Origin: a virus
Lineage: Duplodnaviria; Caudoviricetes
Length of the DNA: 64,000 nt
Direction: 5' to 3' (one strand)
IMG/VR virus record: IMGVR_UViG_3300024322_000001
Of the stretch, positions 35,495 through 47,752 are shown one piece after another; position 1 is the stretch's first letter; each line of letters begins with the position of its first letter. The notes below the pieces were generated by a model, which was not told the DNA's origin, did no database searches, and worked only from the letters and a program-made list of their open reading frames with translations. The position numbers and the translations under genes are program-made.

Positions 35495-36405
35495 TACTGT
35501 CTAAGAGTTTTAGAAATTCTAAAATCTGTGTCTGTAAAGAAATCTGGTATAAATCTCGAATGGGTAGCTCTAATAGGATTAATATCTAAACCACCTCTTC
35601 TAGTATATAGACAAGCAACCATTAAATCATCAGGTTTATACGCATCCATTAAATGCTTAAATACCATTTCACATATTTCCTCATGAAAATGGCTTACCGT
35701 TCTATGAGATACAATATACTTAGCTAACGAAGCTACATCAGGTACATCTCTACCGTTAATTCTTATAAATACATCTCCCCAATCTGGTTGATTAGTAACC
35801 CTACAGTTAGATCTAAGTAAATTTGATTTTAACTTAACCTCGATAGGATCGTCTGAGTTATCTTCAACTGTTAGTTGATCTGAATCTGATTTAAATGCGG
35901 TAAAGTCTATTTCATCTAAATCTACTATATCACCTAAATCTGTATATCCTTCAAAAGATAATTCTTTGCCATCATCTAAATCAGTGTAAAAACTCACAGT
36001 AGTATTAGTTTCAAGTAACTTATCTAAATCAGCTTTTACCCTTCCCTCAATCTCTAAAATACATTCTACAGCTGTATCTCCTAATCTAGTCATATTAAAA
36101 GAATTTAAATATAGCTTAATAGATTTAGATTCCACGTGATATTCAGAATCTGAAGGGCATACTATTTTTAACATACCTGCTACAGGTAATCCTTTACTAG
36201 TAATAGCCGAAACTTCGTAACAGTTCCAGGTATCTACTCCAACAAAGTCTTTATCTGTCAAACCGTAACCTTCTCTATTTAAGTATCGAGGTACTTTAAC
36301 TAATAATTCTGGAGCGTAGGTATCTTTATACCCGTCTCCTCCTACTTTTCCTAAATGTTTAGACGCTATGTCTACTACTTCTTGATAATTTTTAACTTCT
36401 GCCAT
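35494..36405 (-). CDS. queF: NADPH-dependent preQ0 reductase (bimodular QueF)
   Basis: ESKSIKLYLNSF, LRSNCRVTNQPDWG, FHEEICE and YTRRGGLDINP motifs. Confidence 0.93.
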   Translation of the reverse strand: MAEVKNYQEVVDIASKHLGKVGGDGYKDTYAPELLVKVPRYLNREGYGLTDKDFVGVDTWNCYEVSAITSKGLPVAGMLKIVCPSDSEYHVESKSIKLYLNSFNMTRLGDTAVECILEIEGRVKADLDKLLETNTTVSFYTDLDDGKELSFEGYTDLGDIVDLDEIDFTAFKSDSDQLTVEDNSDDPIEVKLKSNLLRSNCRVTNQPDWGDVFIRINGRDVPDVASLAKYIVSHRTVSHFHEEICEMVFKHLMDAYKPDDLMVACLYTRRGGLDINPIRATHSRFIPDFFTDTDFRISKTLRQ

Positions 36406-36410
36406 TTTTT

Positions 36411-37016
36411 TTATTCTTTAATATAATCAATCCAATTAGTTCCTTTTGTATCTCTATTAGGAAATACAAATTTTCGTTTAATATCGCCAATAGTAATAGT
36501 CTTAATAAAACTAGAAGGTACCGTAGCACCAGTTCTTAATACTTCTGACTCGTCTGTAAATACTAACTCCACTCTTACATGTATATCAGTATTAAAAAAT
36601 TTAGCTGCATCTCTTTCAAATGCTTCTAATCTACTCCACTGTCCCCTATTTAACCCTTCGTGCTGTAATGCAGAATTAAAGTAAGAAAACGTGCTTCGTA
36701 AGGATTCTTCAGTACAGCTAAAAGAAGCTGCAGGAGCAAGGTGTCCTTTATCCCAAATATTGTTTTTATAGTCCTCATTATCGGATGTATCATAACCTTC
36801 CGGAATCCAAAAATCCATTCCATGTCTAGATTCCTTACCGTTAGGGCAAGTTATAGTATACTCCACCCATAATGGCTGTTGTAGTTTTTGATCGTACTCT
36901 ACTTTAAATGTTTCAGTTTCTACTATCTGTGCATTTAACGTTGATGTTACAAATATTGTTATAAAAAATATTATTGCAAATAATAATAATTTTTCTGAAG
37001 ATTCTAATTTATTCAT
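36411..37016 (-). CDS. exported DNA/RNA non-specific endonuclease (NucA/Serratia type)
   Basis: Signal peptide (NA-Q); WDKGHLAPAA and N..LQ...LNRGQW..LE motifs. Confidence 0.88.
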   Translation of the reverse strand: MNKLESSEKLLLFAIIFFITIFVTSTLNAQIVETETFKVEYDQKLQQPLWVEYTITCPNGKESRHGMDFWIPEGYDTSDNEDYKNNIWDKGHLAPAASFSCTEESLRSTFSYFNSALQHEGLNRGQWSRLEAFERDAAKFFNTDIHVRVELVFTDESEVLRTGATVPSSFIKTITIGDIKRKFVFPNRDTKGTNWIDYIKE

Positions 37017-37679: not shown

Positions 37680-38222
37680 CTATAAAATTTGTCTCAAAAA
37701 ATTGCACCACATATACAAGCTTCTATCTCTTAATATACGAAATAAATCATCTAATTCCAACTGAAAAGTATTAAATTTTTCTTCAGCAATAATTCTTCCT
37801 TCATCAACCTCAGCTACTACTTTATGCAATACTGCACCTGCTGTAGGATATTTACCTTCTTTAATACCTTCGAAAGCTCTTACTTGAGGATCTTTACCTT
37901 TCAGTTCTGGATATTCAGTTATGAGCCCTGGATGCCCATTATAGATAAGGTATTTTCTACATATAGAAGGAGGCATAACTCTTAACCACCCGTGTAAAGT
38001 AACTAAAGCATTATCTTCTAACACTACATCATAATCCTCTACTGATGGTTTATTCGGCAGGAAAATAATATCCATATCGAGTAATTCATCATTTATTTTT
38101 CTTAAATGCTCAGGTCTTTGATTAGTAATTATTTTATCAGGCCATCTACCAAATGCCTTTGCTATATCTACTATTTCAGTCCCTGTCTGACTAAAGAATG
38201 CTATCCAAAGTTTGTCTCCCAT
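37680..38222 (-). CDS. dpdN: PurN-like formyltransferase, probable preQ1 formyltransferase
   Basis: NGHPGLI..YPELKG, AGAVLHKV and VDEGRII motifs; overlaps the dpdA-like gene. Confidence 0.75.
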   Translation of the reverse strand: MGDKLWIAFFSQTGTEIVDIAKAFGRWPDKIITNQRPEHLRKINDELLDMDIIFLPNKPSVEDYDVVLEDNALVTLHGWLRVMPPSICRKYLIYNGHPGLITEYPELKGKDPQVRAFEGIKEGKYPTAGAVLHKVVAEVDEGRIIAEEKFNTFQLELDDLFRILRDRSLYMWCNFLRQIL

Positions 38223-39018
38223 TTGTAAACCATCTAAATTTTTGTATATTATTTTTAATTGTACCTAATTGCTCTATTGATATATCAGAGTTAATAAGTT
38301 CATGTAATTTTTGTCTCTCTTTAGACCATAATCCGTCTGATCTATATGTTATATTTTTAATACCGTGAACTACAGGATTTGAAGTATCTAAAGAGTATAT
38401 CCAGTCGTAATCAGAGTGCTTATAAAAACTAAATTCTTGAGGAAGCCCACAGCCGAGGAGATGATGAGGTTTAGTTTGATTAATTACTCCATCTCTAAGT
38501 AAGTCTCCTAGTAGCTTAACACGTCCTAGCATCCAACTAACATACTTGTTAGCATGAGGAACTGACTGTGTGTAGTACGAGTAATCAAAAGAAATAGCTA
38601 TCATATCTACATCTGCTGATTTATTCATATAGTTGTAGCAATCTACAATTTCATCATAGGATTTACCTTGTACTACACCTATTTTACCGCTTCCCTTATA
38701 TCCATACCCTTTATTAATCCAATCCTCCATCTGATCGCATGTTTTTTGAGCATCTTCCAAAGCATCTGGAACTATATACCAGGAAGGTTTAAGTTCGTTA
38801 ACCCATCTATTAAATTTATCTGCATCGAAAGCTTCTTCTAATTCAAAAATAGAATTATCTAAAATAACCTCTCTACCTTTACTTACTGCTTTTTTAAATT
38901 GAGCCAAGTATTCTTCATCTTCTTCAAATAAATGTACTAAAGCGTAATCGTAGTCTGTATACTTTTGAACTTCATCAAAAATACTTTTAGGACTTTCGTG
39001 TGCAATTTTTATATTCAT
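38191..39018 (-). CDS. dpdA: TGT-fold 7-deazaguanine transglycosylase (DpdA-like)
   Basis: ILDNSIFE, IVPD, GVVQG, HHLLG and SLDTSNP motifs; lies within the que gene cluster. Confidence 0.78.
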   Translation of the reverse strand: MNIKIAHESPKSIFDEVQKYTDYDYALVHLFEEDEEYLAQFKKAVSKGREVILDNSIFELEEAFDADKFNRWVNELKPSWYIVPDALEDAQKTCDQMEDWINKGYGYKGSGKIGVVQGKSYDEIVDCYNYMNKSADVDMIAISFDYSYYTQSVPHANKYVSWMLGRVKLLGDLLRDGVINQTKPHHLLGCGLPQEFSFYKHSDYDWIYSLDTSNPVVHGIKNITYRSDGLWSKERQKLHELINSDISIEQLGTIKNNIQKFRWFTNGRQTLDSIL

Positions 39019-39036
39019 ATAACTTATTTTTGATTT

Positions 39037-39237
39037 TTACTCTTTACCTTCCTTAAACGTATCGTCTAAAATATTTGAAATATATCTTACATAGCCGTCT
39101 AATTTATTCATTTCCGTATTAAGTTTTTTATCATACGTGAATACTTCTTTGACAGCCTGTTGAGCAATTTCTAGCGGCACATATTCTTTTCCGTCTACTG
39201 TTATAATGTAATCCTCTAAATTAGTACCCTTACTCAT
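39037..39237 (-). CDS. hypothetical protein
   Basis: 66-aa ORF within the operon. Confidence 0.6.
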   Translation of the reverse strand: MSKGTNLEDYIITVDGKEYVPLEIAQQAVKEVFTYDKKLNTEMNKLDGYVRYISNILDDTFKEGKE

Positions 39238-39733
39238 TGAAAAACTTTTTTAAATTAGGTCTAAAGTAATTAACTGATTTCATTACTTTTCTATCTCTTG
39301 TTCTGTATACAATATACAAGTCTTCTACTTTTTCATAATGACATTCTTCATTATAAGCTTTAGACCTGACGGCGACAGTTTCTTTTGCTTCTTCTTCAGT
39401 TTTACAAGCTTTAGACATATTAGAAGCCTGTACCTCTTGATATGCTGGCCATATCTTATCCTTAAGGCCGTGTAACATAGTACCGTTCCCAAGGGAAACA
39501 TAAGCAATGTCGCACAAAGCGTCCAAAACTTCAACGATGTCTCCGTTCTCACACGCTTCTCTATATTCTTCAAGCTCTTCGAGTATAAAGTCATATACGA
39601 ACTGCCACTCTTTCTTCTCTGGTATAGTCGGTTCATAGTTATTTGGTTTGCCAAATGTGGCATTAAATTCTTCTACTTCAGAAACAAATGGTACGTAATC
39701 TGTTTCTCGGAATAATGATAGTTGTTTACCCAT
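39230..39733 (-). CDS. MazG-like nucleoside-triphosphate pyrophosphohydrolase
   Basis: ILEELEEY...EVLDALCDIAYV...VQASNMSK...KVMK motifs. Confidence 0.85.
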   Translation of the reverse strand: MGKQLSLFRETDYVPFVSEVEEFNATFGKPNNYEPTIPEKKEWQFVYDFILEELEEYREACENGDIVEVLDALCDIAYVSLGNGTMLHGLKDKIWPAYQEVQASNMSKACKTEEEAKETVAVRSKAYNEECHYEKVEDLYIVYRTRDRKVMKSVNYFRPNLKKFFNE

Positions 39734-40169
39734 TTTTACTCATTTTTTTCCACCAATCTGTTTTATTGATGAGTTGTTTTTCTTTTCTGTCTACTAAATC
39801 GTCTAAATGATCGTATATACCACGATCCCAATCGTCTTGATATCTAATGATATCATCTTCTCCGAAATAATCTCCGGTTTGCACTTCTATAAATTGTACT
39901 GGTTTATCAGTTTTATTCCAAGCTCTATGTTTACTGCAGCAAGGTATGGTTATAGATTCACCAGGATTATCTAGAGAGTATTCATCACCATCTCTAATGA
40001 CAGTTAACTCTCCACTTACTAGAGTCCATTGCTCTTGTCTCTTCTCATGAGACTGATAGGATAATCTCTTACCTGGAGCTACGGTGATTAGTTTAACTTT
40101 AGTAAAGTCAGTATCTAATAGTACATCGTAGCAACCCCAAGGTCTTTCATCGTGTTCTAATGATTGCAT
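39726..40169 (-). CDS. cupin, type II mannose-6-phosphate isomerase C-terminal-like
   Basis: ERPWG, RLSYQSH.KR.EQW and IEVQTGDYFGEDDIIR motifs. Confidence 0.85.
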   Translation of the reverse strand: MQSLEHDERPWGCYDVLLDTDFTKVKLITVAPGKRLSYQSHEKRQEQWTLVSGELTVIRDGDEYSLDNPGESITIPCCSKHRAWNKTDKPVQFIEVQTGDYFGEDDIIRYQDDWDRGIYDHLDDLVDRKEKQLINKTDWWKKMSKNG

Positions 40170-40870
40170 TTCTCTGCTAATTCTATATTCTTATAAAACT
40201 CAGCTTTAGCTGATGGTTCATCTAAAAAGGCTCCAGTTAGTTTAGCTGTTTGCATTGATGCTCCTCCATGCTTAACTCCTCTACAGGAAACACAAGCGTG
40301 AGTTGCATTAACTTGAACTGCTACTCCTAAATTGCCTTCACATATCTTATCTACTGCATTATGTATAGCTACAGTTAACTGCTCTTGAATAGCTCCTCTT
40401 CTACCGAATTGTTCTACTATTCTATTTAGTTTAGATAGTCCTACTACCTTACCATCTTCTGAAGCTATATAAGCAATACTTACTGTGCCTCTAATAGCTT
40501 GATGATGATGCGAACACATAGACGTTACTGGTATGTTACTCTCTTGTACGATACCGTCATACCCGTCTGAAGGAAAAGCTGTAATCTTATCTAAAGGGCT
40601 ATATCTTCCAGCCCATAAATCGTTAACATATGCTTTAGCTACCCTAAATGGTGTATCTGCAGAGTTAGGATCTGCTGCATAATCACATCCTAAAGCGGTA
40701 AGGAACTCTGCATAAGCCTTTGCTGCTCTTTCTATAATTACTTGTTTTTCATGATCAGTAAGTCTTGCTTCTGGTCCTTCCAGCTTTTGTTTTTCTGCTA
40801 ATTGAGTTGAAATACCGTTAGCGAAACCGGCTTTTACTAATTCTGTTCCTTTTATAAACTTTTTTGGCAT
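40157..40870 (-). CDS. folE: GTP cyclohydrolase I
   Basis: DTPFRVAK, SMCSHH, GLSKLNR, IQEQLT and HACVSCRGV motifs. Confidence 0.96.
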   Translation of the reverse strand: MPKKFIKGTELVKAGFANGISTQLAEKQKLEGPEARLTDHEKQVIIERAAKAYAEFLTALGCDYAADPNSADTPFRVAKAYVNDLWAGRYSPLDKITAFPSDGYDGIVQESNIPVTSMCSHHHQAIRGTVSIAYIASEDGKVVGLSKLNRIVEQFGRRGAIQEQLTVAIHNAVDKICEGNLGVAVQVNATHACVSCRGVKHGGASMQTAKLTGAFLDEPSAKAEFYKNIELAEKCNH

Positions 40871-40878
40871 AATATAAT

Positions 40879-40910
40879 TTATGTTTTTATTGAGGTTCTA
40901 CGACTCATTA
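40879..40910 (-). ncRNA. candidate preQ1-I-like riboswitch aptamer (folE leader)
   Basis: UGAG-UCGUAGAAC-CUCA-AUAAAAA-C-AUA between the promoter and the folE ATG. Confidence 0.65.
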
Positions 40911-40917
40911 CTATAAC

Positions 40918-40949
40918 TTAATATAAGAACTTTTATTCATTAATCCAAA
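40918..40949 (-). promoter_or_regulatory. Bacteroidota-type promoter for the folE-dpdA-dpdN-queF run
   Basis: TTTG-N20-TATATTAA. Confidence 0.72.
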
Positions 40950-41359
40950 TAATCTTGAATTGTTTTTGAATCTTTTTTCTCCCATGGGTACACGATCCAA
41001 TCAGTAGTTTCTAACCAATTGCAGTAGAAGTCTGGTTTTGTTACTGTAGTGTTTCTTACGTCTAATGTAGCTGTTGTGTATCCCTGTTTCTTAAAGTGTT
41101 TGAGGGTCTGTCCAGAGTCGGATATATCATCCACTATTAATATTTTTTTCTTATCTATATTAAGGTTAAACTCCTCTAACTTTTCTAGATGGTCTATAGT
41201 TATGTGCTTTATCCCCAGTTTATGAGACATAATGACTGCTACTACTAAACCTCCTCTCGGTATACCTACTACGTAATCTACATTTTTAATTTTATTTGCT
41301 AATTTTTCTACCTGGTGGTCTATATCGTTCCAGGTAACGAATACTTTTTTTGGAGTCAT
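40940..41359 (-). CDS. type I phosphoribosyltransferase (Gpt-like)
   Basis: GIPRGGL, ILIVDDISDSGQTL and WIVYPWE motifs. Confidence 0.9.
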   Translation of the reverse strand: MTPKKVFVTWNDIDHQVEKLANKIKNVDYVVGIPRGGLVVAVIMSHKLGIKHITIDHLEKLEEFNLNIDKKKILIVDDISDSGQTLKHFKKQGYTTATLDVRNTTVTKPDFYCNWLETTDWIVYPWEKKDSKTIQDYLD

Positions 41360-41362
41360 ATC

Positions 41363-41665
41363 TTACTTTAATATTAACGTTGATAAATGTACTATGTTAT
41401 ACTTAATTGCATAGTCAACAACTTCTTGTCCTGTTTCTTCACTTACGATTCTTATATCTTTGAAGTCAAGACCTTCTTCGTTAACATATTCTACTAATTC
41501 CCTAACAGTACAGCTATGATTTTCCAAGTTCATCAAATCTAAGGTCTGTATGGAGTCCATTGTAATTAATTCTAAGGTATTCCCAGATAGTTTATAATCC
41601 CAAATAGGACTATTTAAAAAGTACACCTTACGGTCTAAATCTTCTAAAATATTACTATAATTCAT
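41363..41665 (-). CDS. hypothetical protein
   Basis: 100-aa ORF within the operon. Confidence 0.6.
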   Translation of the reverse strand: MNYSNILEDLDRKVYFLNSPIWDYKLSGNTLELITMDSIQTLDLMNLENHSCTVRELVEYVNEEGLDFKDIRIVSEETGQEVVDYAIKYNIVHLSTLILK

Positions 41666-41789
41666 TTATAAAAATTTTTAGTTTATCTATTAATACTAGT
41701 ACATCGTCTGGTTCCATAGTAATAGCACAGCATGTATTAATATTTTCTTCTACTTCTTCTAATATCTCTAAAGCTTCGTCTTTAGTCAT
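41655..41789 (-). CDS. small hypothetical protein (44 aa)
   Basis: Own translation MTKDEALEILEEVEENINTCCAITMEPDDVLVLIDKLKIFINEL; coupled to the queE stop. Confidence 0.55.
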   Translation of the reverse strand: MTKDEALEILEEVEENINTCCAITMEPDDVLVLIDKLKIFINEL

Positions 41790-42577
41790 TATACTTCACG
41801 TTGATCTTCAAAAGCAATGATATGCGGTCTCCAAGTCATTCTATAACCATTATCTCTAACCCAATCAAATAATACCGGATAAGATTTAAATAATGCTTCC
41901 CTTGAATCTCCTGCAGGCATAAACCATACCTTACTTTTAGGTATTTTTAACCTGTAAATACAGGTCATTATTTCCTCTAAAGCTTTTTCATCTTTACCAT
42001 CCCATACAGGTTTTAAATGATAGTCAGAGTGGTAATTGATACTTTCTTCTATAGCATCATAATTAAGTCTAAACTTATTATGCTGCTTTATCATTCTTTC
42101 GTCAGTAATCCCTCCTTGAGGAGTCTCTACGCCAATGACTGGAACAGAATTAGAAAACTTAGGGCTAATAGATAGCAGATTAATAGGGTAATCTGTGGGT
42201 AGAAAGTGACTACCTTCAGTTTCGATAGTAATAAATATATTATTCTCATTTGCAAAGTGTGTTAATTCGTTTACCAAAGCTGGATGCATTGTAGGAGAAC
42301 CTCCTGTTAGCATCATTTCTTTAATATGGGGGTTATCTTTATACTTTTGTATAATATCGTTAAAATTAAATTGACCTTTTTCTGGATGGATTGAAGTATA
42401 CCAGCTATCACACCAGCCTCCTTCTCCAAAGTAACATCTATGGGTACAGCCAGTAGTTCTAATTACTATAGTTGGGTACCCTGCTCTTGAACCTTCTGAC
42501 TGTACTGCAGTATAAACTTCTACAATCGGTAAGTTCTTTTCGTAATCTTCTATTCTTTTTAATTGTTTATGCGACAT
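41789..42577 (-). CDS. queE: 7-carboxy-7-deazaguanine synthase (radical SAM)
   Basis: VQSEG, RTTGCTHRC...WCDS, LTGG, IETEGS and SISPK motifs. Confidence 0.9.
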   Translation of the reverse strand: MSHKQLKRIEDYEKNLPIVEVYTAVQSEGSRAGYPTIVIRTTGCTHRCYFGEGGWCDSWYTSIHPEKGQFNFNDIIQKYKDNPHIKEMMLTGGSPTMHPALVNELTHFANENNIFITIETEGSHFLPTDYPINLLSISPKFSNSVPVIGVETPQGGITDERMIKQHNKFRLNYDAIEESINYHSDYHLKPVWDGKDEKALEEIMTCIYRLKIPKSKVWFMPAGDSREALFKSYPVLFDWVRDNGYRMTWRPHIIAFEDQREV

Positions 42578-43031
42578 AATAAGCTGCGTTTTTTCCGTGT
42601 TCCATAAATTTTACTTTCGTCACCTTAACTCTACCTTCTGTTTCTTCTTCTACAAAATCATTTAATTTATTAAAAATATATTCTGCAAATTTTTCTGCTC
42701 CGGTAGCAGGTATAACTCTGATTTGTGCTACTTCTGATAATCCCATATGTAGAAATTTATCTAAATAGGGGTCGTCCTGAGCAACTATGAAGGTATGGTC
42801 GAACATATAATCCATCCATTGCTTAGGAGATAAGCCATCTATTTTAGTCTTAGCTCTTTTCATACCTCCGAAGTCCCATACCCAGTTTCTGTAGTCTAAT
42901 TCTCCTTCAAAATATACTTTAAATGCTACTCCGTAGCCGTGAACAAACCTACAATGTGTATCTTCTGCTTTCCATTGACGGAACACAGTAGAGAACCCGT
43001 CGAATACTTTACTTGATTGAAATTTTCCCAT
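42567..43031 (-). CDS. queD: 6-carboxy-5,6,7,8-tetrahydropterin synthase
   Basis: HCRFVHGY, WDFG, FDH and GAE motifs. Confidence 0.9.
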   Translation of the reverse strand: MGKFQSSKVFDGFSTVFRQWKAEDTHCRFVHGYGVAFKVYFEGELDYRNWVWDFGGMKRAKTKIDGLSPKQWMDYMFDHTFIVAQDDPYLDKFLHMGLSEVAQIRVIPATGAEKFAEYIFNKLNDFVEEETEGRVKVTKVKFMEHGKNAAYYVA

Positions 43032-43040
43032 ATCTTTAAT

Positions 43041-43274
43041 TTAAACTAATTCTTCCCCTATTCCAACTATTTCTGCTAAAAATAGACCTATAAAGCCTAA
43101 TTCAAACATACCAAAGAAGCCAAAAGCACATGCTCCTAGCCTAATAGCTGATTTTAAAAATGAAATTCTTTGGTGAAGTTTCGGATCAGGTATTTTCTGT
43201 CCGTCGATCTCAATAGAACCTTTTTGTTTTTTAAACTCCGTATCTTTATACAGAGTATTTGCTTTTTTACTCAT
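43041..43274 (-). CDS. small membrane protein, first gene of the queD-queE operon
   Basis: Hydrophobic C-terminal half ending LAEIVGIGEELV. Confidence 0.7.
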   Translation of the reverse strand: MSKKANTLYKDTEFKKQKGSIEIDGQKIPDPKLHQRISFLKSAIRLGACAFGFFGMFELGFIGLFLAEIVGIGEELV

Positions 43275-43276
43275 AT

Positions 43277-43308
43277 TGGTGTTTTTAAAGTGGTGCTACG
43301 ACACTATA
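43277..43308 (-). ncRNA. candidate preQ1-I-like riboswitch aptamer (queD-queE operon leader)
   Basis: AGUG-UCGUAGCAC-CACU-UUAAAAA-C-ACC; same architecture as the folE leader. Confidence 0.6.
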
Positions 43309-43322
43309 GTCTTATATTACTT

Positions 43323-43354
43323 ATAATATAATAAAAAAAGGGATAGTAAGCAAC
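43323..43354 (-). promoter_or_regulatory. Bacteroidota-type promoter for the queD-queE-PRTase run
   Basis: GTTG-N20-TATATTAT. Confidence 0.7.
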
Positions 43355-43363
43355 TATCCCCTT
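43333..43363 (-). terminator. intrinsic terminator after the fibre-like genes (overlaps the next promoter)
   Basis: GGGATAGT-loop-ACTATCCC followed by a U run. Confidence 0.8.
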
Positions 43364-43382
43364 AGTTTTTTTTAAATTATTT

Positions 43383-45131
43383 TTATGCTAGTAATGCTAA
43401 TAAAGAACCTGTAAAGTCATTGTAGTTTGTTGACCCTGTTAATGCAGCTCTTAATTTTGCTTTGCTAACATAATTTAATTCAATAGAAGCTGATGGTACA
43501 AATGTGTAAGCATCCTGCTCTAAATCGTGAATATCGTTATGATTTTCTGTCCACGATTGTGCTATAGAAGCAGACAGCATTGTAAATGAACCTGTAATGT
43601 CAGCTTTTAAAGCGTATGAACTTGTTGCTGCTAATAGTCCTAGTTGCGAACCAGATAATGCAGCTATATCGTCATTGTTGTTACTTACATCGGTTTGTAG
43701 AATTGCTATGTCATCTACATTGGCAGTAGTCACGACTGCAAAAGATGCTGAAACTGCATCTAGCTGTGCATCAGTAGCATACTCACTATCTATAGAGGAA
43801 CTAAAACTTTCTAAGCTTATAATTCTAGCATCTAAAGAAGCTGTAGCTGTATATAATTCATCTTCAGAAGCATATATATTATCAAATGAAGAACTAAAGT
43901 TTAATAGATGTGCTGTTTCTAAAGCAAGTGATGAAGACACACTATCTAGTTGTGCGTCTGTAGCATAATAGTTGTCTAAAGAAGAACTAAAGTGATCTAA
44001 TCTAGCTATAGATTCCGAGACATTGCTATATCCTGCTATCGATAATTGACCAGATTCTGCTTTAATATTTCTAATTGTGACAATGTCATTATCTGCTGAT
44101 ATTTTGCCAGTGGTATTTATATCATCAGAAGCATATATAGTACCGGTTACCGCGATTCCATTAGTAGTAGTTGAGAATTTTTTAGCATTATCATAATAAA
44201 GCTCAATAGGACCATCTTTTGTAAACTTAGCAAAAGTTTCTCCCAATTGTCCTGATTTGATTTCAACTTCATTATCTGAAACTATTAATAGATCTCCAGA
44301 TCCTTTTTCCTGTATATGTGAATTTCCAGCTACATCTGAGAATATATCTAGTTTGCTATCTATTGCAATTTTTCTACCTGCTGTGGCAAGTATTATATCT
44401 CCATTGGATACTGTTACTGTACCTTCTTGATCAAGAGTACCAATTCTAGTATAGTCTCCTTTTTGACCAGTATCTCCATTGTGATCTATATCACCAAGTA
44501 AAAAAGTACTACCTGTAATTGATAAATCTCCTTTAAATTTACTATCTGCATTTACATAGAAAGGATAGTCAGCTTCTTCTTTTAGATTTGCTCCTAATTT
44601 AAATCTACTTGAAGAAGGATGGTTAATCTGTATTCCTGCATATCTGGTAGGAATACCAGATTCTACTTTATAGTAGTCTTCTAATTTAATATGTTCTCCA
44701 TTACCACCAGCTACTCCATCTCTTCCTGCTTCAGAGATACTAAATTTATTATTATAAAAAGTAGTATAGTTTACGTTTGAAGACGTAGTTTCTGCTGCTA
44801 ATTGAAGACCGTGTAAACCTTCTGTATCAGTCGGTAGTACCTCTAACAATCCTCCTCCGTTAACTCCCTTTTGAAGATTTATATCGTCTCCTAGAGTTAT
44901 AGATTTATTAGAATCTAATCCTCCACTAACAAATACTGAACCTGTGAAGTTATGTAGATCATCTGCAGAATCTCCAAACAGAGTAGAACCTGATCTGTAG
45001 ATGATTGATGTTTGTACTTTTTCCGTTATAAATTGTTCTGCAGTTACATCTCCTGTAACTATCAGACTGCCGGATAGACTTACTATCTGTCCGCTTATCG
45101 GTTTAATGCTATTTACTCTAATTCTACTCAT
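43383..45131 (-). CDS. tail-fibre-like virion protein
   Basis: SGS/TGS-rich beta repeats, SIIYRSGSTLFGDSADDLHNFTGS motif, C-terminal coiled-coil repeats (YATDAQLD); TATTTAT upstream. Confidence 0.6.
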   Translation of the reverse strand: MSRIRVNSIKPISGQIVSLSGSLIVTGDVTAEQFITEKVQTSIIYRSGSTLFGDSADDLHNFTGSVFVSGGLDSNKSITLGDDINLQKGVNGGGLLEVLPTDTEGLHGLQLAAETTSSNVNYTTFYNNKFSISEAGRDGVAGGNGEHIKLEDYYKVESGIPTRYAGIQINHPSSSRFKLGANLKEEADYPFYVNADSKFKGDLSITGSTFLLGDIDHNGDTGQKGDYTRIGTLDQEGTVTVSNGDIILATAGRKIAIDSKLDIFSDVAGNSHIQEKGSGDLLIVSDNEVEIKSGQLGETFAKFTKDGPIELYYDNAKKFSTTTNGIAVTGTIYASDDINTTGKISADNDIVTIRNIKAESGQLSIAGYSNVSESIARLDHFSSSLDNYYATDAQLDSVSSSLALETAHLLNFSSSFDNIYASEDELYTATASLDARIISLESFSSSIDSEYATDAQLDAVSASFAVVTTANVDDIAILQTDVSNNNDDIAALSGSQLGLLAATSSYALKADITGSFTMLSASIAQSWTENHNDIHDLEQDAYTFVPSASIELNYVSKAKLRAALTGSTNYNDFTGSLLALLA

Positions 45132-46660: not shown

Positions 46661-46734
46661 TGGAGAATATCGGAGTCGAACCGATGACCTCCTGCGTGCA
46701 AGGCAGGCGCTCTAGCCAGCTGAGCTAATCCCCC
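46661..46734 (-). tRNA. tRNA-Ala(UGC)
   Basis: GGGGGATTAGCTCAGCTGGCTAGAGCGCCTGCCTTGCACGCAGGAGGTCATCGGTTCGACTCCGATATTCTCCA: full cloverleaf with G3:U70; CCA is not encoded. Confidence 0.97.
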
Positions 46735-46910: not shown

Positions 46911-47699
46911 TTATACATAGTCAGCAAGTACTTTTTCAACATGAGTTTTTGCTACTTCGTAATCAACCACTCCAGTTTCATCCTCATACTGTACAGGATC
47001 TTTTCTCCCCAAAGCAATAAAAGCCTCAATCCTCTCAACACTAGAAGCAGACTTATAATCGGAATTTCCACTAGGATAGGGTTTGTACGATGTATTAGTT
47101 CTCTTATAAACTTCATCAAAATCAATACCTAAAATTTCACATAATTTTTCTCCATCTTGTAGAATACCAAATTTATCAGTATCTAAATAAGGTGTAAAGT
47201 AACCTACTCTATCTGCATCCCAGTTTCCAATTCTAAAAGCTGCATCATCTGCATCTCTAAATTCTTGTCTACAATCAGGATAAACTGCATGATCACCAGC
47301 ATGAATACCTAAAGCAATATCACAAACGTCTTCTGTTCTATTTGCTACAGATAATGCAACTGCTTGAGTAATTGAAGCAAACATTTTGTTTCTATTAGGA
47401 ACAACTGTTTCTTTCATATTATCTTGCTCATAATGTCCTTCTGGTACATCATCCCCACCTGTAACTAAAGCTGAGTCTAATAAATCTACTAGACCATCAA
47501 GTTTAATTTGACGATAATTTATTTTGTGTCCTTTACTTGCAAGGTAATCAATTAATGATTGAGCTCTCTCTAGCTCTACTCTGTGTTTTTGACCGTAATC
47601 AAATGAGATACCAGTTACGGTATCATACTTCTCGATAGCTCTTAACAATAGGGTGCTACTATCCATTCCACCACTTAAACTTACTACACAATGTGCCAT
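46911..47699 (-). CDS. queC: 7-cyano-7-deazaguanine synthase
   Basis: SLSGGMDS, FDYGQKH, VVPNRN and YPDCR motifs. Confidence 0.95.
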   Translation of the reverse strand: MAHCVVSLSGGMDSSTLLLRAIEKYDTVTGISFDYGQKHRVELERAQSLIDYLASKGHKINYRQIKLDGLVDLLDSALVTGGDDVPEGHYEQDNMKETVVPNRNKMFASITQAVALSVANRTEDVCDIALGIHAGDHAVYPDCRQEFRDADDAAFRIGNWDADRVGYFTPYLDTDKFGILQDGEKLCEILGIDFDEVYKRTNTSYKPYPSGNSDYKSASSVERIEAFIALGRKDPVQYEDETGVVDYEVAKTHVEKVLADYV

Positions 47700-47752
47700 A
47701 ATTTACTTATTTAATTTTTGCCAGGTATTTTGCGTATAGGCTAACGCTTTTA

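Follow-up and report, generated by a model that had tools for sequence, protein, structure and literature searches.

The question raised by this locus is whether a short hairpin with an adenine-rich tail, found a few nucleotides ahead of a que operon in a phage genome, is a ligand-sensing RNA and, if so, of which kind. The stretch of DNA analysed (the window) is 64 kb long and belongs to a 116-kb contig. On its minus strand the hairpin and tail extend from 43305 to 43278 (28 bases) and end 3 nt 5' of the AUG at 43274; they consist of a 4-bp stem (P1), a 9-nt loop UCGUAGNAC, a 7-nt A-rich stretch (L3) and CA (Table 1). The first-pass annotation had described AGUG, loop, CACU and tail just ahead of the ATG at 43274, and the minus-strand sequence bears this out. 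The loop UCGUAGCAC can be divided into L1 (U, C), a P2 5' strand (GUAG) and L2 (CAC), with C43293 as the putative specificity cytosine. The adenines of L3 lie at -8 to -12 from the start codon, and the tail of this copy gives A at -6 and -3. The hairpin alone is unstable (-2 to -3 kcal/mol, z about 0) and thermodynamically unremarkable; since its energy is not distinctive, the case for a structure rests on comparative evidence.

Table 1. Features of the que-operon leader, its operon and related elements; positions refer to the window unless another locus is named.
Feature	Position	Strand	Basis
Terminator-like hairpin and T-run, end of upstream 582-aa gene	43337..43363	-	terminator scan, sequence
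Promoter-like box ATTATATTA, 18 nt 5' of P1	43324..43332	-	recurrence; promoter function putative
P1 5' strand AGUG (G43302, putative pocket-floor G)	43302..43305	-	covariation
Loop UCGUAGCAC	43293..43301	-	near-invariant columns in alignments
P1 3' strand CACU	43289..43292	-	covariation
L3 UUAAAAA, A-rich tail	43282..43288	-	five A invariant
P2 3' strand candidate CACC	43278..43281	-	C and A invariant
C43281, A43280, CC, AAU, then AUG	AUG 43274-43272	-	sequence reading
First gene, conserved 77-aa protein, hydrophobic C-terminal half ending EELV	43041..43274	-	
Remainder of operon	40940..43031	-	Pfam, PHROGs
QueD	42567-43031	-	Pfam, PHROGs
QueE	41789-42577	-	Pfam, PHROGs
100-aa ORF	41363-41665	-	
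PRTase	40940-41359	-	Pfam, PHROGs
Sister copy UGAG / UCGUAGAAC / CUCA / AUAAAAA / CAUA	40880..40907	-	folE leader
Recurrent box	61564, 40927, 34870, 34240, 30152, 26922, 18844, 9641 and others	-	
Bacterial examples of the element	L287:1032-1061; L299:4371-4400		

The upstream terminator and the promoter-like box make the que operon a separate transcription unit, with the element at its very start. The box is a version of a recurrent phage element, (T)CTTATATTA / CGTATATTA, and its position 12-20 nt ahead of the hairpin is conserved in relatives. The same recurrent box precedes many minus-strand genes of the window, often at 13-16 nt from the AUG, which suggests a phage or host promoter element giving near-leaderless mRNAs; the two riboswitch-type leaders resemble this box-plus-AUG arrangement with about 40 nt inserted. 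A sigma-70 promoter scan was uninformative, the host being a member of the Bacteroidota.

The element had been placed at the head of a queD-queE-PRTase operon. The operon stood, but its first gene is not queD: the conserved 77-aa ORF comes before it. The product of this ORF matched no Pfam family above cut-off and no PHROG family. Its homologues are 62-107 aa long (e.g. L006:818-1060, L041:403-726), variable in the N-terminal part and strongly conserved in the C-terminal half, with P-D-P-K-L-H-Q, S-F-I-K-S-x-I-R, a hydrophobic stretch and a terminal E-x-V-G-I-x-E-E-L-V. In some phages the small ORF is missing and the element lies directly 5' of queD or queE.

Six seawater metatranscriptome runs contain 66-92% of the sampled words from 40100-43400. 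Both leaders are covered in four of these runs (assembled contigs, which are blind to RNA ends and may include DNA carry-over), one contig ending at 43304. This end adjoins the first base of P1; we draw nothing from it.

The window holds a sister copy of the element in the folE leader, where the stretch through the C at 40883 lies 12 nt ahead of the folE AUG at 40870. The loops of the two copies are identical at 8/9 positions and the tail spacing is equal (7 nt, then C), both as had been reported. Three of the four P1 pairs had also been said to differ; the actual number is two, both strand flips, at pair 1 (U-A to A-U) and pair 3 (A-U to U-A), pairs 2 and 4 being G-C in both copies. The sequence GTCGTAGMACC occurs exactly twice in the 64-kb window and twice in the whole 116-kb contig, in agreement with the earlier observation that, in this genome, the motif stands only ahead of preQ-pathway operons. 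A covariance model built from relatives scored the two copies at 54.6 and 49.8 bits, the next best hit in the 64 kb reaching 14.8 bits.

The surrounding genes point to the synthesis of a modified DNA base. The folE unit continues at 37680-40169 (minus strand) with a cupin or mannose-6-P-isomerase-like gene, a MazG-like pyrophosphatase, a 66-aa ORF, DpdA and a 180-aa ORF, the last of these in the position of the formyltransferase of Flavobacterium phage immuto. QueC (46911-47699) and a bimodular QueF (about 35560-36480, minus strand) are also encoded in the window. The closest cultured relatives are Flavobacterium phage vB_FspM_immuto, whose FolE is 78% identical and whose DpdA is 75% identical to that of the window, and Cellulophaga phages; a megablast search of GenBank phages found no match to the region, and relatives were reached through their proteins. 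The DNA of immuto is fully substituted with fdPreQ1, all G being replaced (PMC10516641), and the DNA of the present phage is predicted to carry a preQ1-derived base. The folE copy of the element is present in immuto.

Both queC and queF are preceded by other sequence than the element. The queC leader (47700-47750, minus strand) has a GC-rich 4-bp hairpin, GCGU/ACGC, followed by an A-rich linker and a GGC with which the GCC of its loop could pair; the preQ1-I pocket bases are missing from it. The structure is not conserved in the relative L022, where the promoter box is followed directly by queC. A tRNA gene (46661-46734, minus strand, 66.8 bits) lies directly downstream of queC and was the only hit of Rfam at gathering thresholds over the whole window.

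For a comparative analysis, 80 distinct instances of the element were gathered from related marine phage contigs and from bacteria; the covariance model was built from 58 distinct instances, and covariation was tested on 60 distinct instances of 30 nt. Three of the four P1 pairs covary. Pair 1 was AU in 31, CG in 16, UA in 7 and GC in 6 instances; pair 2 was GC in 44 and CG in 16; pair 3 was UA in 50 and AU in 10; the closing pair 4 was G-C in 60/60. The variable positions thus show four, two and two Watson-Crick types. The covariation score of P1 was 0.498, compared with 0.112 in shuffled alignments (0/500) and at most 0.18 in slid registers. When the loop and tail were matched with no pairing filter, 60/83 distinct matches paired at all four positions and the other 23 at 1-3 positions; chance alone, with the G-C fixed, would give full pairing in about 5%. 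One natural exception, L027, has A.A as its outer P1 pair. The reading of the element as a functional, aptamer-like RNA serving a two-operon preQ regulon is supported by this covariation and by the gene association in relatives described below, and comparison among relatives is far stronger evidence for structure than the two in-genome copies alone, on which that reading had been built.

The invariant columns are the floor G-C pair, the U and C of L1, the A-G of the P2 strand, the final loop C, five adenines of L3 and the C and A that follow; within the loop, little or no variation is seen at the U, C, A, G and final C (alignments A1 and A4). The length of L3 is 7 nt in 68/80 distinct instances (85%), with a range of 5-9. 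The base before the specificity C is A in 79/80 distinct instances and C in one, and AC at this place is the type II signature.

For P2, the ceiling pair between the loop G and the C after the A-run is invariant in sequence. The second pair, equivalent to C9-G33 of the Tte aptamer, is standard in 72% of instances (UA 30, UG 8, CG 5, other 17), against roughly 66% estimated from the column compositions, and is U.C in the que-operon copy. Where loop position 4 is C, as in seven variants, the opposite base is always G, although these variants possibly represent one clade; where it is U, the opposite base is A or G in 71%. Pairing in P2 beyond the invariant G-C is thus suggested rather than proven by these weak preferences. 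An alternative register with a bulged A, in which GU pairs with the AC of the tail, fits the GU loops about equally well and was rejected because it fails for 7/7 of the AC-loop variants. The que-operon copy had been credited with the weaker P2: this holds in the Tte register, where U.C compares with U-A in the folE copy, and fails in the alternative register.

The gene association was analyzed in 160 related IMG/VR loci retrieved by FolE and QueD homologues. All of the 103 matches with at least 31 bits were found on the gene strand, before folE or before the small ORF, queD or queE, and everything else scored 21 bits or less. A gene-blind scan of IMG/VR with the loop and tail pattern, with no stem requirement, gave at least 85 matches. 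Among the matches listed, 42 pair at 4/4 positions and 43 are unpaired, the latter looking like chance occurrences in unrelated sequence. Among the 42 paired matches listed, 37 are genuine, with a proper tail and an AUG within reach, and five have no motif tail or no AUG. Homology confirmed that 35 of the 37 genuine matches listed precede FolE, small ORF-QueD-QueE, QueD alone or QueE alone; the remaining two (L180:14307 and L219) lie at locus ends, and the first codons in L180 resemble the start of FolE. A look-alike with the P1 UGGG/CCCA in other viral contigs (L222, L229) was discarded, being located inside a coding region. An occurrence before unrelated genes, which the first-pass annotation had named as evidence against its own reading, was not seen in the gene-blind pattern scans.

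The folE copy is absent from 27/80 related folE loci (L029, L031, L035-L037, L061, L065, L074 and others), in which the promoter box is kept next to the AUG; several of these loci retain the queD-operon copy. The element is thus dispensable, and it behaves as an insertable module that is gained or lost. Both phage-type copies, in phage gene order, were also found in a 5.9-kb contig of a 'Verrucomicrobiales' MAG (L320, NYWG01000135.1), which is probably of phage origin and was binned with the MAG.

A scan of 185,579 bacterial and archaeal genomes with the loop and tail pattern returned 70 stretches (loci L287-L356). About 50 of them have the identical loop UCGUAGCAC and tail together with a P1 of CCUG/CAGG; the remaining 20 or so are unpaired and lie in unrelated sequence. 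Thalassospira and several other taxa carry the bacterial element ahead of queC; Vibrio, Marinomonas and Thaumasiovibrio carry it ahead of queD. Downstream of the element, the queD versions have a conserved GUGCUGC, complementary to GUAGCAC of the aptamer, and after it a hairpin that covers the ribosome-binding site, an arrangement typical of a classical anti-aptamer/sequestering platform. The bacterial copies were not recovered by model R1 at E up to 0.001, probably owing to phage-specific flanking columns, and were compared by pattern. No Rfam 15 family matched them; these elements are unannotated by Rfam, and published preQ1-I alignments may include them.

The conserved positions were compared with those of the preQ1-I type II aptamers of Thermoanaerobacter tengcongensis (Tte) and Bacillus subtilis (Bsu), the sequences of which are printed in PMC10639078 with a P1 of 5 bp. 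In the Tte aptamer, C15 pairs with preQ1 and U6 and A29 read its other edge; the pocket floor is G5-C16, with O6 of G5 touching the aminomethyl group, and the ceiling is C7.G11-C30; P2 contains the non-canonical pairs G8.A31 and A10.A32 and the canonical C9-G33 (PMC7641330, PMC11625349). An AC directly ahead of the P1 3' strand marks type II aptamers (PMC11625349). The phage loop U-C-G-U-A-G-N-A-C maps to Tte U6, C7, G8, C9, A10, G11, A13, A14 and C15, and the phage tail A-C-A-N-N to A29, C30, A31, A32 and G33, so that A43280 is the predicted equivalent of Tte A31. The invariant and near-invariant columns are exactly the Tte floor pair, U6, C7, A10, G11, A14, C15, the L3 adenines, C30 and A31, and variation among the known aptamers falls in the same columns that vary here. 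All the bases by which the smallest preQ1 riboswitch known contacts its ligand are thus present in the element.

The traits by which preQ1-I aptamers are recognised were found as follows. P1 covaries and has the G of its closing G-C pair on the 5' strand, with 4 bp compared with the 5 described. An invariant C, the specificity position, lies directly 5' of the P1 3' strand as part of an AC. The first base of L1 is U and the last base of L3 is A, both invariant, and L3 is A-rich and of constrained length, its docking in the P1 minor groove being putative. The element stands in the leaders of queuosine-precursor genes: folE, small ORF-queD-queE, queD and queE in phages, queC and queD in bacteria. 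Between the aptamer and the AUG, neither a Shine-Dalgarno sequence buried in P2 nor a terminator platform was seen.

The Rfam PreQ1 model (RF00522, gathering threshold 39 bits) matched neither copy at E up to 10, in 76-nt searches or over the whole contig, and gave no match on the Thalassospira relative. A weak PreQ1 match of 17.3 bits at 43356-43391 falls on the terminator and an A-run, off the motif. A DUF805 RNA match (RF03081, 17.4 bits against a gathering threshold of 51.1) was attributed to chance: it spans GUG...CACU, the A-run with the next C and the start-codon region, skipping the loop, and by Pfam the downstream ORF is not DUF805. By the curated Rfam model the element is not a member of the family; by the published defining residues it is expected to work like preQ1-I. 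Streptococcus phage Dp-1, considered as a possible carrier of a preQ1 riboswitch, shows none in its annotation or in an Rfam scan of its que operon, and the literature covered, mostly open-access, held no report of a preQ1 riboswitch in phages.

Taken with the gene context, the comparative data argue that the element is probably a cis-acting riboswitch of the preQ1-I kind, a shortened type II relative that would exert translational OFF control of the que operon and of folE. Transcription would begin, after the terminator of the preceding gene and the phage promoter box, a few nucleotides 5' of the hairpin, at a start that we infer rather than have mapped. The ligand would be the phage's own preQ1, with preQ0 as a possible alternative. 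The last loop C would read the Watson-Crick face of the ligand, and the first loop U and the last L3 A its other edge; C43281 would pair with G43296 of the loop to form the pocket ceiling; and, with the A-run docked in the P1 minor groove, the RNA would form an H-type pseudoknot whose 3' end lies 3-6 nt from the AUG.

In all instances, 4-12 nt separate the aptamer from the AUG. Because this gap leaves no room for a terminator and the hosts are SD-less, control is probably translational. The hosts belong to the Flavobacteriia, which do not use Shine-Dalgarno pairing, and initiation in F. johnsoniae is favoured by A at -3, -6, -12 and -13 and by a weakly structured stretch from -20 to +20 (PMC6847099). 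Docking of the tail upon ligand binding would fold away the A-rich initiation region and reduce translation of small ORF-queD-queE-PRTase, and the sister copy would likewise lower that of folE. The tail of the phage element might then have a dual use, as a part of the aptamer and as a Shine-Dalgarno-independent ribosome-loading signal. Whenever the free base is made faster than DpdA inserts it into DNA, FolE, QueD and QueE would be throttled, and the net effect would be a feedback on the GTP-consuming early steps of DNA hypermodification.

The short, unstable stem, its position over the initiation region, an almost invariant loop like those of protein-binding hairpins and the conserved protein of unknown function encoded at the head of the operon would also suit a translational operator, bound through loop and A-rich tail by a phage or host protein that blocks initiation. 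This explanation is unlikely, for the same loop and tail precede queC and queD in Alpha- and Gammaproteobacteria that share no genes with the phages, and the proteobacterial copies are coupled to an anti-aptamer and sequestering-hairpin platform. Moreover, several phage loci keep the element directly before queD or queE with no small ORF, and the conserved positions match the ligand contacts of the solved preQ1 aptamer one for one (PMC7641330, PMC11625349). The element could also be pictured as acting at the level of DNA, as an inverted-repeat operator for a transcription factor or as part of a promoter, given that it is a short inverted repeat 12-20 bp downstream of a conserved promoter-like box; such an operator, independent of pairing, was the other outcome that the first-pass annotation had set against its reading. 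We consider this very improbable: the half-sites vary freely while their complementarity is kept, loop and tail lack symmetry and their conservation is confined to the sense strand, with all matches on the gene strand, the 4-bp repeat is too short for a dimeric operator, and loci that lack the element keep the box directly before the gene.

A riboswitch of related build might instead respond to another 7-deazaguanine (such as preQ0, CDG or a formylated base), act as an ON switch or control RNA stability. The architecture is shorter than that of the characterised aptamers and escapes the Rfam model, the binding of preQ0 by known type II aptamers is just ~17-fold weaker (PMC11625349), and phage relatives encode further base-modifying enzymes (PMC10516641). 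Set against this, the floor G that contacts the aminomethyl group, the specificity C and the U and A readers are all invariant, the phage-encoded QueF implies that preQ1 is made, and the regulated genes are early biosynthetic steps, like those under bacterial OFF switches; a different ligand, direction or level of control is therefore quite unlikely.

A preQ1-sensing OFF switch at these two operons would bear on how the pathway is controlled. Full replacement of G by a preQ1 derivative, as in immuto-like phages, draws heavily on the GTP pool, and the 2023 paper that defined the pathway (PMC10516641) contains neither the word 'riboswitch' nor 'regulat-' and leaves flux control undescribed. If the proposal is true, the flux could be controlled in a simple way, through an RNA that senses the ligand at both entry points of the pathway, and the element would be the first riboswitch shown to gate a phage DNA-hypermodification pathway. 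It would also be a natural case of translational riboswitch control with no Shine-Dalgarno sequence, SD-independent translational control having been named an open challenge in a recent review (PMC11625349), and the first riboswitch with an adenine-rich, 'Kozak-like' initiation region as its expression platform. Because the Rfam model detects neither the phage nor the bacterial versions, such elements are missed in annotation. With about 28 nt, the RNA is directly testable.

Among known systems the element is closest to the preQ1-I type II aptamers (Tte, Bsu; RF00522). Shared with these are a hairpin of ~30 nt with an A-rich tail, the U-C of L1, the A-G end of the P2 strand, AC before the P1 3' strand, a floor G-C with G on the 5' side, an A-run followed by C-A, and the queuosine-precursor genes; as in the Tte switch, which is translational, the start codon lies right next to the aptamer. 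The phage element differs in its dimensions, with a P1 of 4 bp rather than 5, an L2 of 3 nt rather than 4-6 and a shorter L3 of 7 nt, and also in having no SD in P2, in a host group that is SD-less, and in falling outside the Rfam model. The bacterial elements share with the phage copies the loop UCGUAGCAC, the 4-bp P1, the 7-nt L3, the CAC tail and the pathway; unlike the phage copies, they have the P1 CCUG/CAGG, occur in SD-using Proteobacteria and, in the queD versions, carry an expression platform of 50-90 nt. We tentatively suggest, as a possibility somewhat short of an even chance, that the two groups form an uncatalogued preQ1-I subtype (4-bp P1, 3-nt L2, 7-nt L3) common to marine Proteobacteria and to phages of Flavobacteriia, with a tail put to dual use in the phages. 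The comparison supports a new setting for what would be a preQ1-I variant, in phages, SD-less hosts and DNA-modification genes: unlike the known type II switches, it is found in phage genomes, in two copies per genome, and serves the making of a DNA base rather than a tRNA base.
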